The notes: generated from the letters alone by a model not told the origin. A DNA stretch of 64,000 nt from a plasmid (NZ_LR134454.1); one strand, 5' to 3'; positions 32,138-35,645 are shown, numbered from the stretch's first letter. Made by a program: numbers and translations.

Positions 32138-33817
32138 GTGGCTGAAACTTCAGGGCGGCGCCCTGCGATTCTGACCGTCGACGACGATCCGAGCGTGTCC
32201 CGCGCGGTGGCGCGGGATCTGCGGCGCAAGTACGGCGACGAGTACCGCATCGTCCGCGCGGAGAGCGGCGAACAGGCGCTGGAGGCGCTCAAGGAGCTCA
32301 AGCTCCGCGGCGACCTGGTGGCCGCGATCCTCGCCGATTACCGCATGCCGCAGATGACGGGCCTCGAATTCCTCGAGGCCGCGATGGACGTCTACCCGGG
32401 CGCCCGGCGGCTGCTGCTCACCGCGTACGCGGACACGGGCGCCGCGATCGAGGCGATCAACGTGGTCGACCTCGACCACTACCTCCTCAAGCCCTGGGAC
32501 CCGCCGGAGGAGAAGCTCTACCCCGTCATCGACGCGCAGCTGGAGGCCTGGCTCTGCAGCGACCACCGGCCCGTGCCGGAGACGAAGGTCGTCGGGCACC
32601 GCTGGTCGGCCCGCTCGTCGGAGGTTCGGGAGTTCCTGGCCCGCAACCAGATCCCGTACCGCTGGTACACCGCCGAGTCGCCCGAGGGGCAGCGCCTCCT
32701 CGCCGCCGCGGGCAGCGACGGCCAGCAGCTCCCGCTCGTCGCCGCGGCCGACGGGACCGCGCTGTGCGCACCGTCGGACAGCGAACTGGCGGCCCACGTG
32801 GGCCTGAACACCACCCCGTCGGAGGAGTTCTACGACCTGGTCGTCGTCGGCGCGGGCCCGGCCGGGCTCGGCGCCGCCGTGTACGGCGCGTCCGAGGGGC
32901 TGCGGACGGTGCTCGTCGAGCGGTCCGCGACCGGCGGGCAGGCGGGGCAGAGCTCGCGCATCGAGAACTACCTGGGCTTCCCCGACGGGGTCTCGGGCAC
33001 CCAGCTCACCGACCGGGCGCGGCGGCAGGCGACCAAGTTCGGCGCCGAGATGATCACCGCCGCCGACGTCGTCGAGCTCGAGGTGACGGGCTCCGGCCGG
33101 CGGGTGCGGTTCTCCGACGGCACCGTCGTGGGGGCGCACACCGTCATCCTCGCGACGGGCGTCGCGTACCGGCAGCTGGACGCGCCGGGCATGGCGCGGC
33201 TCACGGGCGCCGGGATCTTCTACGGCTCGGCGATGACCGAGGCGCCGGCCTGCGCCGGCCAGGACGTCTACATCGTCGGCGGCGCCAACTCCGCGGGCCA
33301 GGCCGCGGCGTACCTGTCGAAGGGCGCGCGCTCGGTGACCCTGCTGGTGCGGGGGCCGTCGCTCGAGGCGTCGATGTCGTATTACCTCATCCAGCAGCTG
33401 AACGCGATCGAGAACGTGCACGTGCGGCCGCACACCCAGGTGGTCGAGGCGCACGGCGACGACCACCTCACACAGCTCACCCTGCGGGACACCGAGTCGG
33501 GCGCGACGGAGCAGGTCCCGGCGGACTTCCTGTTCGTCTTCATCGGCGCCGAACCGCGCACGGACTGGCTCGACGGCGTCGTCGCGCGGGACGGGCGGGG
33601 CTTCCTGCTGACGGGCCCGGATCTCGCGCTCGACGGTGCCGCGCCCCGGGGATGGGAATTGGACCGGCCGCCGTTCCACCTGGAGTCGAGCGTCCCCGGC
33701 ATCTTCGTCGCCGGCGACGTCCGGTCCGAATCGGCGAAGCGCGTCGCCTCCGCGGTGGGCGAGGGCGCGATGGCCGTCATGTTCGTCCACCGCTATCTGG
33801 AAGGAGTCGACTCGTGA
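32138..33817 (+). CDS. Response-regulator receiver domain fused to a thioredoxin-reductase-like FAD/NAD(P) oxidoreductase
   Basis: REC domain (ILTVDDDPSVSRAV...LADYRMPQMTGLEFL...LLLTAYAD) followed by a TrxB-like domain (DLVVVGAGPAGLGAAVYGA, GGQAGQSSRIENYLGFP). The canonical CAxC redox motif reads CAGQ, i.e. a single Cys. Confidence 0.85.
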   Translation: MAETSGRRPAILTVDDDPSVSRAVARDLRRKYGDEYRIVRAESGEQALEALKELKLRGDLVAAILADYRMPQMTGLEFLEAAMDVYPGARRLLLTAYADTGAAIEAINVVDLDHYLLKPWDPPEEKLYPVIDAQLEAWLCSDHRPVPETKVVGHRWSARSSEVREFLARNQIPYRWYTAESPEGQRLLAAAGSDGQQLPLVAAADGTALCAPSDSELAAHVGLNTTPSEEFYDLVVVGAGPAGLGAAVYGASEGLRTVLVERSATGGQAGQSSRIENYLGFPDGVSGTQLTDRARRQATKFGAEMITAADVVELEVTGSGRRVRFSDGTVVGAHTVILATGVAYRQLDAPGMARLTGAGIFYGSAMTEAPACAGQDVYIVGGANSAGQAAAYLSKGARSVTLLVRGPSLEASMSYYLIQQLNAIENVHVRPHTQVVEAHGDDHLTQLTLRDTESGATEQVPADFLFVFIGAEPRTDWLDGVVARDGRGFLLTGPDLALDGAAPRGWELDRPPFHLESSVPGIFVAGDVRSESAKRVASAVGEGAMAVMFVHRYLEGVDS

Positions 33818-35298
33818 GCACTCATGACCCGTGCTTCGTCGACGAACTGCGCACCCTGTTTCTGTTCGAGAAGCTCAGCGACGAGCAACTGGAGTGGCTG
33901 TGCCGACGCGGCCACGTGGAGACCTTCCCGGCCGGCCCCGTCTACTCCACCGGCGATCCGGCGCAGTGGCTGTTCGTGCTGCTCAGGGGCACGATCGCGC
34001 TGTCGCAGAAGGTGGGCGACGCGGAGGTCGAGACCACCCGCTCCGATCAGCGCGGCGCCTACTCCGGCGCGTGGTCGGCGTTCCTCGGCAAGGGCGGGCC
34101 GGCGCAGAAGCAGTACAACTCGTCCATGCGCGCGGTGACCGAGGCGCAGTTCTTCATGCTGCCCGCCGAGGACTTCAACGAGGCGATGCACGAGTGGTTC
34201 CCGATGGCGGTGCACCTGCTGGAGGGCGTCTTCTACGGCGGGCAGCGCACCCGGCAGATGGTCGAGCAACGCGAGCGGCTGCTGGCGCTGGGCTCGCTCT
34301 CCGCCGGCCTCACCCACGAGCTGAACAACCCCGCCGGCGCGGCCACCCGCGCGGCCACGGAGCTGCGCACCCGTGTGGGCGGCATGCGGCACAAGCTGGC
34401 CGGCATCGCCAGCGGCAAGCTCGACCGGACGCGCCTCGTCGACCTGGTGAAGTTCCAGGAGGAGGCCGTCGAGGCGGTGGCGGACGCCCCCGACCTCGGT
34501 CCGCTCGAGGCCTCCGATCGCGAGGACGAGCTGATGGACTGGCTCGACGACCACGACATCGGCGACGGCCACGTGCTGGCCCCCGTGTTCGTGGCCGCGG
34601 GCCTGCAGACCGACTTCCTCGACCGCGTCGCGGGCTCGCTCGACGACGGGCCGGTGCTCTCCGGCGCGCTGCGCTGGCTGTACTACACCGTCGAGACCGA
34701 GCTGCTCATGAACGAGATCACCGACTCCACGAGCCGGATCTCCACCCTGGTGCAGGCGGCCAAGCAGTACTCGCAGATGGACCGCGCGCCCTTCCAGGTG
34801 CTCGACGTCCGCGAACTGCTCGACAGCACCGTCGTCATGCTCAGCCGCAAGATCGGCGACGGCGGCGTCACCGTGGTCCGCGACTACGACCCCGACCTGC
34901 CCGACATCCAGGGGTACGGCGCCGAGCTGAACCAGGTGTGGACCAACCTCATCGACAACGCGGTGCAGGCCATGGACGGCCGCGGCACCCTCACCCTGCG
35001 GGCGCACCGCAAGGAGGATGCGGTGGTCGTCGAGGTCGCCGACACCGGCTCCGGCATCCCCGCCGACGTGCTGCCCCGCATCTTCGAGCCCTTCTTCACC
35101 ACCAAGGGCGTCGGCGAGGGAACCGGACTGGGCCTGGACATCTCGTGGCGCATCGTGGTGAACAAACACCAGGGCGACCTGGCGGTGCGCTCCGAGCCGG
35201 GGAACACCGTGTTCACCGTGGAACTGCCCATCGACGGGCCGCAGCGCGAAGCAGTGATCGACGATCCCGGCGAGCCGGGAGAAGGACTGGAGCCATGA
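33814..35298 (+). CDS. Sensor histidine kinase with N-terminal cyclic-nucleotide-binding (CAP/cNMP) domain
   Basis: GTGA overlap with the upstream gene. cNMP-binding domain ([48 protein letters not shown]). HisKA H-box [12 protein letters not shown]. HATPase_c (DTGSGIP...GTGLGL). No TM segment. Confidence 0.85.
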
Positions 35299-35645
35299 GC
35301 GAACCGACCGACCCGATCGATCCGACGGTGCCGCCCAGCGGCGCCGGGTGCGTGGAGTGCGACGCCGCCGGCGGCTGGTGGGTGCACCTGCGCCGCTGCG
35401 CGAAGTGCGGCCACATCGGCTGCTGCGACTCCTCGCCGTCGCAGCACGCGAGCGCCCACGCCCGCGCGAGCGGCCATCCCATCGTGCAGAGCTTCGAGCC
35501 CGGCGAGGCCTGGTTCTGGGACTACGTCTCCGAGGACTACTACGACGGTCCGCTGCTCGCCGACCCGCAGAACCGGCCCGTCGACCAGGCCGTGCCCGGC
35601 CCCGCGGGACGCGTGCCCGCCGACTGGCGGAACCACGTGCACTGA
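35295..35645 (+). CDS. UBP-type zinc-finger (zf-UBP) domain protein
   Basis: ATGA overlap with the kinase. Cys/His pattern CVECD...[34 protein letters not shown] typical of zf-UBP. Confidence 0.7.

Follow-up and report, generated by a model that had tools for sequence, protein, structure and literature searches.

Introduction

The closest described relatives of the system reported here are SCO7298 and SCO7297 of Streptomyces coelicolor, an uncharacterised response regulator-histidine kinase (RR-HK) pair of the P2CS "TrxB" family with a classic kinase, encoded in the RR-HK order (PMC9739842). Expression of SCO7298, called trxB3, rises on exposure to polysulfide (PMC9952706) and under acid shock (PMC2631018). 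Biochemical data are available for a single probable family member, ATII-TrxR from a Red Sea brine pool, a 552-amino acid (aa) protein with a cyclic nucleotide-binding (CNB) domain and a TrxB part, 87% identical to a Cupriavidus protein. The native enzyme contained 1.87 mol FAD per mol, used NADPH (Km 5.2 μM) and NADH (Km 4.2 μM), acted on DTNB with a kcat of 5.6 per s and, when assayed with insulin, reportedly reduced its cognate thioredoxin (Km 1.0 μM, kcat 28 per s); its authors named Cys206-Cys223 and Cys376-Cys467 as redox centres (PMC6544261). The present analysis concerns a three-gene locus (g1, g2 and g3; positions 32138-35645) in a 64,000-nucleotide stretch of the plasmid NZ_LR134454.1, this whole stretch being referred to as the window. 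The locus codes for a response regulator with a predicted flavoprotein output, a histidine kinase and a bacterial zf-UBP protein.

The RR family is already catalogued, and judged from architecture, gene order and the Streptomyces homologues (about 75-80% identical in g1), the locus is the Tsukamurella orthologue of the SCO7298/SCO7297 type. As in that family, a receiver (REC) domain lies N-terminal to a module resembling thioredoxin reductase (TrxR) and the kinase is encoded immediately downstream; a 94%-identical g1 homologue was named by PGAP "fused response regulator/thioredoxin-disulfide reductase". New, and not found in the literature, are the double cysteine loss, the degenerate kinase cassette, the modular regulation of the flavoprotein and the cross-phylum zf-UBP link described below; nothing relevant was found there on zf-UBP proteins with kinases, REC-TrxR fusions or bacterial UBP zinc-finger operons.

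The Flavoprotein Output of the Response Regulator

The features of g1 are the following.

32138..33817, + strand: g1, response regulator with flavoprotein output, 559 aa (open reading frame (ORF), Pfam, NCBIfam, AlphaFold2 (AF2) model)
32162..32527, + strand: REC domain, approximately residues 9-130 (Response_reg, 53.6 bits)
32579..32803, + strand: mycoredoxin/glutaredoxin-like thioredoxin (Trx)-fold domain, approximately residues 148-222 (PDB profile search, AF2 topology)
32828..33811, + strand: TrxR-like FAD/NAD(P)H module, residues 231-558 (Pyr_redox_2, 8.7e-32; solved TrxRs, about 1e-43)
33227..33238, + strand: lost redox CxxC position, S364-A-M-T367 (alignments to 7jyp and 5uth)
33251-33253, + strand: lone C372, 3' of the lost CxxC position

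The TrxR-like module of g1 lacks the redox-active CxxC. In HMMER alignments the CATC or CAAC of solved TrxRs fell on S364-A-M-T367, within "YGSAMTE". An original prediction, made from the sequence alone, had read the CAxC site as CAGQ, which is the wrong register: C372 of "ACAGQ" sits five residues further along the same helix. The alignment with TrxB that it had proposed as a check places SAMT at the canonical CxxC, and the intact CxxC elsewhere in the fold that it had named as counter-evidence does not exist, g1 having three Cys residues in total (140, 210 and 372) and no CxxC anywhere. The loss is a family trait. Among 115 aligned family representatives, each of at least 500 aa and each standing for one 50%-identity cluster, the two canonical CxxC columns were never Cys and read A/S/G and S/T/A, and E368-A369, GGQ, GxGxxG, GGxNSAGQ, R405 and M413-S-x-Y-L were near-invariant.

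The cofactor sites are retained, with the FAD motif reading GAGPAG and the NAD(P)H motif GGANSAG. At the HRRxxxR 2'-phosphate motif g1 reads V404-R405-G406-P-S-L-E410, and R405 alone is kept in the family; this reduction to VRGxxxE agrees with the dual NADPH/NADH use by ATII-TrxR. By Foldseek the TrxR-like part superposed best on TrxRs in the flavin-reducing (FR) conformation (L. lactis 5mh4, TMt 0.95, rmsd 1.5 Å).

The receiver appears complete. Response_reg and Pyr_redox_2/3 were matched by Pfam within the one ORF, and D15-D16-D17, the phospho-acceptor D67 (32336-32338), T95 and K118 were invariant in 32 homologues, in line with the predicted fusion of a CheY-like receiver to a TrxR fold. 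Although REC and TrxR-like parts had been recognised correctly, a Trx-fold domain of about 75 residues between them had been overlooked. Its profile retrieved from the PDB the mycoredoxin Mrx1 (Rv3198.1, 2LQO) as best match (E 4.2e-10), ahead of thioredoxins, glutaredoxins and NrdH, whereas Pfam gave no match on the isolated domain, and residues 148-222 or so of the AF2 model have the beta-alpha-beta-alpha-beta-beta-alpha topology. The fold of a glutaredoxin or mycoredoxin is therefore present, but not the CxxC or CxxS active site: the W-C-G-Y-C of Mrx1 aligned to W156-S-A-R-S160 (32603-32617), both Cys being replaced by Ser in g1, and at this former dithiol the consensus of the family is S...S/T/A.

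Since this middle Trx fold was found by both the profile search and the AF2 model, g1 has an AhpF-like three-part layout, and on sequence grounds it is composed of a REC domain, a Mrx/Grx-like domain and a TrxR-like module, the latter two devoid of their catalytic Cys. The whole chain gave AhpF (4o5q) as the best Foldseek match (E 1.1e-30). The model used (pLDDT 94.7, pTM 0.90) was built on a diverse 131-sequence alignment; an AF2 run on a shallow alignment of 32 close homologues (pLDDT 56.7) was discarded. AhpF chemistry does not follow from the layout: in AhpF a Trx-fold CxxC relays electrons from the TrxR-like CxxC, whereas the g1 Trx fold reads WSARS, and the AhpF model TIGR03140 scored 159.7 bits against a cutoff of 502.9. 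Judging from these alignments, the output of the response regulator is a TrxR-fold flavoprotein without the redox-active CxxC, and hence, as originally proposed, a flavoprotein rather than a DNA-binding domain.

That g1 is nevertheless a genuine, if unusual, disulfide reductase for Trx, mycoredoxin or a low-molecular-weight thiol, working through a C372-type Cys under REC control, seems unlikely. The database names "thioredoxin reductase" and trxB3 imply such a role, trxA lies immediately upstream of zf-UBP and flavoprotein genes on Rhodococcus plasmids, and C372 is kept in many members. YpdA is a precedent for a single-Cys disulfide reductase of the TrxR fold, and g1 has a weak NCBIfam match to YpdA. 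However, C372 is Cys in just 35 of the 115 representatives, the canonical positions are never Cys in any of them, the TrxR equivalog TIGR01292 scored 216.1 bits against a cutoff of 343.45, and the fused Mrx-like domain has lost both its Cys as well.

The reduction of thioredoxin and DTNB by ATII-TrxR is the biochemical argument for such a reductase. A Ralstonia family member has its Cys at positions 206, 223, 376 and 467, of which C376 corresponds to C372 of the window, and its canonical site reads "YWASPIEA". Because these positions coincide with the centres named for ATII-TrxR and the architecture agrees, ATII-TrxR is probably itself a member of the CxxC-less family; the report describing it overlooked the missing motif and contained no Cys mutants. 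The one Cys of a Deinococcus REC-type member is at an unrelated position, so the Trx activity ascribed to ATII-TrxR needs re-examination.

Conservation of the Gene Order

At least 597 close g1 relatives came from a genome scan that included each species once, and the best 80 loci were used for counting. A g2 homologue was found directly downstream of g1 in 79 of the 80 loci, and g3 then followed in about 66, two further loci being cut at contig ends. The genera represented included Streptomyces, Jatrophihabitans, Rhodococcus, Pseudonocardia, Kutzneria, Williamsia, Catenulispora and Cellulosimicrobium, and the Streptomyces homologues of g1 that are 75-78% identical to the Tsukamurella protein are followed by homologues of g2 and g3. 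Chance can be excluded as the origin of this arrangement because the gene order recurs across genera while the flanking genes are shared within Tsukamurella only. The co-occurrence check attached to the prediction of a conserved three-gene module was thus passed.

Outside the actinobacteria, RR-HK pairs with genes overlapping or 2 bp apart were found on Deinococcus, Nostoc and Caballeronia plasmids, there without zf-UBP. The invariant adjacency and the stop/start overlaps in several phyla indicate that g2 and g1 are likely a cognate pair.

Some loci depart from the common pattern. In Cellulomonas sp. JZ18 (L081, 2863-4541) the g1 orthologue is split at about residue 287 with g2 and g3 intact, which is a frameshift or an assembly error. 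In Deinococcus aetherius (L089, 633-2030 and 6260-7660) and Caballeronia NK8 (L091, 3052-4482 and 6227-7630) the REC-flavoprotein gene lies between two paralogous genes for g2-type kinases. A gene for LtrA (low temperature requirement A) stands straight after the pair in Nostoc and two genes further downstream in Deinococcus. A metagenome-assembled genome labelled Candidatus Melainabacteria (L062) carries all three genes, with 72%, 63% and 72% identity to the Tsukamurella proteins; such values are typical of Actinobacteria, and the bin or its label may be wrong.

The Histidine Kinase and Its Sensor Domain

The features of g2 are the following.

33814..35298, + strand: g2, soluble HisKA-type histidine kinase, 494 aa (HATPase_c; ZraS, CckA and NtrB structures)
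33835..34233, + strand: CNB-fold (CRP/FNR-type) sensor domain (cNMP_binding, 28.0 bits; PDB profile matches)
34291..34341, + strand: H-box, DHp helix 1, GSLSAGLTH168ELNNPAGA (ZraS H-box alignment)
34366..34701, + strand: family-specific insertion between the DHp helices, about 110 residues, 185-296 (split ZraS match)
34924..35232, + strand: catalytic ATP-binding (CA) domain with N, G1, F and G2 boxes (HATPase_c)

Pfam matched g2 with HATPase_c (89.8 bits, 2e-25, residues 371-473) and, just above the cutoff of 27.5 bits, with cNMP_binding. Both marks of a HisKA-type kinase are present, an H-box His and a CA domain with its four boxes, and the putative phospho-acceptor His168 (34315-34317) is invariant across phyla. 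ZraS, CckA and NtrB-type kinases matched in two pieces, residues 147-209 (H-box) and 323-476 (DHp helix 2 and CA domain); the Pfam HisKA model was not matched because of the 110-residue insertion between them. The insertion motif SDREDEL..WLD.H....W.[IL]AP..V.AG is kept in the paired kinases of Deinococcus, Nostoc and Caballeronia. No Pfam match and, with a family profile, no sequence relative in the PDB were found for this insertion, which may be a docking or sensing sub-domain. The kinase is soluble, as predicted: no hydrophobic stretch long enough for a membrane helix occurs in g1, g2 or g3.

With the N-terminal profile of g2 the best solved relative was DNR, a haem/NO-sensing CRP-FNR protein (3.5e-13), followed by the CNB domains of PKG and PKA (about 1e-10), and by these matches the assignment of the CNB fold is sound. 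True binders of cyclic nucleoside monophosphates (cNMP) hold the ribose 2'-OH through the Glu of the FGE motif and the cyclic phosphate through the R[ST]A arginine. This phosphate-binding cassette is lost in g2, where Glu is replaced by Ala86 (G85-A86) and Arg by an invariant Tyr101 (Y101-N-S). Thus, of the predicted soluble kinase with a cNMP-binding N-terminus, the soluble kinase and the CNB fold stand and the nucleotide-holding Glu and Arg do not.

An input of cAMP or cGMP to g2 is unlikely because the residues that would contact the nucleotide are replaced, and a cyclic nucleotide bound by the N-terminal domain and driving a phosphorelay to the flavoprotein, which the original prediction had favoured, is judged improbable. 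Pointing to it are the marginal Pfam score, the PKA and PKG matches and the existence of paralogues in which a CNB-fold domain is fused directly to the flavoprotein, one of them (P0122) with a REC domain and a C-terminal CNB domain carrying the canonical GE...RTA cassette. The CNB domains fused to the flavoprotein otherwise lack the RTA/RSA arginine too, as the paired Deinococcus, Nostoc and Caballeronia kinases lack the cassette, and the closest solved structure is that of DNR. A redox-sensing pair C7/C30 in g2 was also considered as a family-wide feature and rejected, the two residues being conserved in actinobacteria only and missing from the Deinococcus, Nostoc and Caballeronia kinases.

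The zf-UBP Protein

The third gene has the following position.

35295..35645, + strand: g3, bacterial zf-UBP protein, 116 aa (zf-UBP; 2IDA match)

The zf-UBP model (PF02148) matched g3 with 54.6 bits (cutoff 22.7, 1.3e-14). The solved R. palustris protein RPA1320 (2IDA) was matched at 6.3e-27 and the USP5 and HDAC6 fingers at about 1e-4. Eleven residues are invariant, six Cys and five His (C19, C22, H31, C35, C38, H40, C43, C44, H51, H55 and H61), which bears out the predicted bacterial zf-UBP protein. C19, C22, C38 and H51 align with the Zn ligands C199, C202, C219 and H232 of USP5. The R221/Y223 pocket of USP5 for the ubiquitin C-terminal Gly-Gly is not preserved, H40 and G42 being found in its place.

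Regulatory Domains and zf-UBP Genes Associated with the Flavoprotein

Residues 140-559 of g1 were searched against 1.84 billion representatives, yielding 3352 matches at E < 1e-30. Nearly all of the top 150 matches carry an N-terminal extension of about 140 aa. Pfam recognised REC in 20, cNMP_binding in 21 and SnoaL_2 in 2 of 84 representatives, and a family-specific REC model raised the REC count to 68 of 114. Longer fusions include SnoaL_2 with or without REC (P0143 and P0157 are among the unusual fusions) and a C-terminal EF-hand pair (P0241), and R. qingshengii has a bare 420-aa flavoprotein with no regulatory domain. A single conserved catalytic core with exchangeable signalling domains is what characterises a regulated output enzyme.

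The same exchange bears on the idea that g1 is not a catalytic output but a pseudo-enzyme or redox sensor: its flavin/NAD(P)H module would signal the redox state of the cell, its Cys-less Trx fold would bind partners such as the zf-UBP protein, and the protein would serve as a scaffold or phosphate sink. Both catalytic dithiols are gone under extreme sequence conservation, the conserved unit encodes no DNA-binding or other output, the small conserved partner has a protein/peptide-binding fold, and the AF2 model is locked in an FR-like conformation. On the other side, the swapping of REC, CNB and EF-hand domains is typical of regulated enzymes, and ATII-TrxR, given artificial acceptors, oxidises NAD(P)H at several turnovers per second. 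We regard a pseudo-enzyme as rather unlikely.

Close g3 homologues have the same operon placement, and the zf-UBP gene was found beside the flavoprotein gene in other surroundings as well. A Rhodococcus PD04 plasmid (L083, 1-6924) carries dnaK-grpE-dnaJ-cbpM-clpB-trxA-zfUBP-CNB-flavoprotein. No kinase gene is adjacent or between there, nor with the zf-UBP and CNB-flavoprotein genes of Agrobacterium or the zf-UBP and bare flavoprotein genes of R. qingshengii. R. leguminosarum has the order HK-RR-REC-zfUBP-flavoprotein beside dps, where the zf-UBP and CNB-flavoprotein genes stand downstream of an unrelated kinase/regulator set. By coordinates, zf-UBP also adjoins the flavoprotein, with no kinase gene adjacent or between, in Microvirga, Novosphingobium, Burkholderia (divergent orientation) and Paraburkholderia. 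A flavoprotein gene lay at most 5 kb from zf-UBP in at least 52 of 73 listed plasmid zf-UBP records, a count that overstates independence, many of the records being related Rhizobium strains.

Since the pairing persists without an adjacent kinase or with an unrelated one, the flavoprotein, not the kinase, is probably the partner of zf-UBP. The genomic linkage of zf-UBP to the flavoprotein extends over Actinobacteria, alpha- and beta-proteobacteria and holds both with and without a kinase. A zf-UBP-flavoprotein fusion was suggested by coordinates in R. qingshengii and rejected, two genes being involved, and none was found among ten long representatives.

A few further observations were made on these neighbourhoods. 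The Rhodococcus PD04 trxA product has a Trx2-type N-terminal zinc ribbon, and the dnaK...trxA-zfUBP-flavoprotein order apparently occurs again on a number of plasmids from Rhodococcus and Nocardia. On Deinococcus plasmids (H36 and H156) the gene containing the zf-UBP match has the annotation cation:proton antiporter, which suggests a fusion of zf-UBP to a transporter in this genus.

By analogy with rubredoxin and rubredoxin reductase, the zf-UBP protein could be the redox or metal partner of the flavoprotein, and not a ubiquitin-type reader, a Cys6His5 metalloprotein being reduced or remodelled; this proposal is highly speculative and, taken alone, improbable. If true, the two proteins would form an electron-transfer or metal-handling couple switched by REC, by CNB ligands or by Ca2+ (EF-hand) depending on the lineage, and would represent a new class of bacterial signalling output.

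Proposed Mechanism

The model that we favour, with modest confidence, is that a signal perceived at the CNB-fold domain of the kinase gates phosphorylation of D67 and thereby an activity of the flavoprotein that depends on NAD(P)H and does not involve dithiols, with the zf-UBP protein as partner and in a stress setting. A small-molecule or redox signal would set the autophosphorylation of His168 in g2. Phosphotransfer to Asp67 of g1 would then relieve or impose an inter-domain constraint on the flavoprotein, a role which CNB, SnoaL or EF-hand domains may fill in paralogues. The output of the switch would be NAD(P)H-dependent electron transfer without dithiol-disulfide exchange, and zf-UBP would act as a direct partner of the flavoprotein, be it substrate, acceptor or adaptor. 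Thiol, oxidative or proteotoxic stress is the probable physiological context, as suggested by the induction of SCO7298 by polysulfide and acid, the chaperone-trxA cluster of Rhodococcus and the dps neighbour in Rhizobium.

Several points weigh against this model. The zf-UBP gene is lacking in about 12 of the 78 actinobacterial loci that are complete, as well as in those of Deinococcus, Nostoc, Caballeronia and Ralstonia, and occurs without the flavoprotein in Variovorax and Arthrobacter; missing from some loci and solitary in others, it is not an obligatory component. The evidence for a stress context is circumstantial, and the flanks differ outside Tsukamurella. Phosphotransfer, its consequences for the flavoprotein and the substrate are, for REC-type members, matters of inference. 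The thioredoxin reduction by ATII-TrxR at 28 per s, if real, contradicts a non-dithiol chemistry and would make these proteins unusual TrxRs. Finally, very high conservation together with loss of the catalytic Cys also fits a non-catalytic sensor or scaffold.

To our knowledge, the two-component outputs that are understood are almost all DNA-binding, cyclic-di-GMP, methylesterase or phosphatase domains. The flavoprotein output of g1 has lost the defining chemistry of its parent enzymes and is yet under strong selection, with 75-80% identity across distant orders of actinobacteria, and it is found also in Proteobacteria, Cyanobacteria and Deinococcus. The view of the stress literature that "trxB3" is an ordinary TrxR is, from the sequence, probably wrong. 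The locus offers an experimental way into two orphan families, the CxxC-less TrxR-like effector and the prokaryotic zf-UBP, and could uncover in Streptomyces, Rhodococcus, Nocardia and rhizobia a redox activity that is switched post-translationally.

Organization of the Locus and Flanking Genes

An ORF scan of the window placed g1, g2 and g3 on the + strand with overlapping ends, joined by the following elements.

33799-33806, + strand: Shine-Dalgarno-like GGAAGGAG before the GTGA overlap
33814..33817, + strand: GTGA start/stop overlap of g1 and g2
35295..35298, + strand: ATGA start/stop overlap of g2 and g3

Both overlaps had been noted in the original prediction and are present as described there. 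The three genes have the same third-position G+C content (GC3, 0.95) and no internal stops, and a promoter/terminator scan around the operon gave nothing convincing. The window is from Tsukamurella tyrosinosolvens: a protein of that species matches the g3 product with 100% identity, and g1 shares 96-98% identity with its homologues in other species of the genus.

The genes flanking the module, coding for a membrane protein, a glycosyltransferase, a methyltransferase, a Zn-dependent alcohol dehydrogenase (ADH), a metallo-beta-lactamase (MBL)-fold protein and a condensation protein, recur in Tsukamurella loci only. All-against-all clustering of the ORFs of the 80 loci found neighbours beyond the module to be lineage-specific and none universal.

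Upstream, a membrane-protein ORF at 31336-32133 (+ strand; probable start near 31498) has a weak DUF6968 match. It may be co-transcribed with g1 because it ends 4 bp before the g1 start codon; homologues were found in just 2 of 4 other Tsukamurella loci, which places it outside the conserved module. The ORF at 26955-29057 (+ strand) codes for a 700-aa protein with four MgtE_N repeats and a long acidic tail rich in Ala, Pro, Glu and Thr; long ORFs on the opposite strand or in other frames of this region look like high-GC artefacts.

Downstream of g3, at a distance of 68 bp, lies the gene for the Zn-dependent ADH (35714-36799, + strand), which resembles class III or mycothiol-dependent formaldehyde dehydrogenases, followed with a 4 bp overlap by the gene for the MBL-fold hydrolase (36796-37422, + strand). 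This pair adjoins the module within Tsukamurella only. A functional tie between the module and the mycothiol-type ADH/MBL pair was considered and rejected because the flanking genes recur in Tsukamurella only and clustering finds lineage-specific neighbours. A stand-alone condensation-domain protein of 479 aa (38138-39577, - strand; PF00668, 2.8e-11) is kept in Tsukamurella loci.

Comparison with Known Systems

The g1/g2 pair does not differ in kind from SCO7298/SCO7297. With ATII-TrxR, g1 shares, as deduced through the Ralstonia homologue, a Grx-like domain and a CxxC-less TrxR-like module; ATII-TrxR differs in having a CNB-fold regulator at the N-terminus where g1 has REC, and no kinase.

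The two-Rossmann FAD/NAD(P)H fold of TrxB (E. coli 1TDE, M. smegmatis 5UTH) is common to g1 (E about 1e-43), as are the motifs GxGxxG, GGQ...ENxxGFP and GGxNSA. In contrast to TrxB, g1 has SAMT for CATC, VRGxxxE for HRRxxxR and N-terminal fusions to REC and a Trx-fold domain. AhpF likewise has a Trx-fold part N-terminal to its TrxR-like module, with two Trx folds where g1 has one; in addition, g1 has no CxxC in either part and no AhpC partner. The middle domain shares fold and topology with mycoredoxin-1 (Rv3198.1, 2LQO) and with NrdH and glutaredoxins, but its WSARS in place of WCGYC renders the site incapable of dithiol/disulfide or mixed disulfide chemistry.

Finally, g3 belongs to the same Pfam family as the ZnF-UBP/BUZ fingers of USP5 and HDAC6 and as RPA1320. 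Unlike the eukaryotic ZnF-UBP domains, the bacterial family has an invariant GCCD motif and an aromatic W73/W75/Y77 cluster, and the host of g3 has no ubiquitin system.

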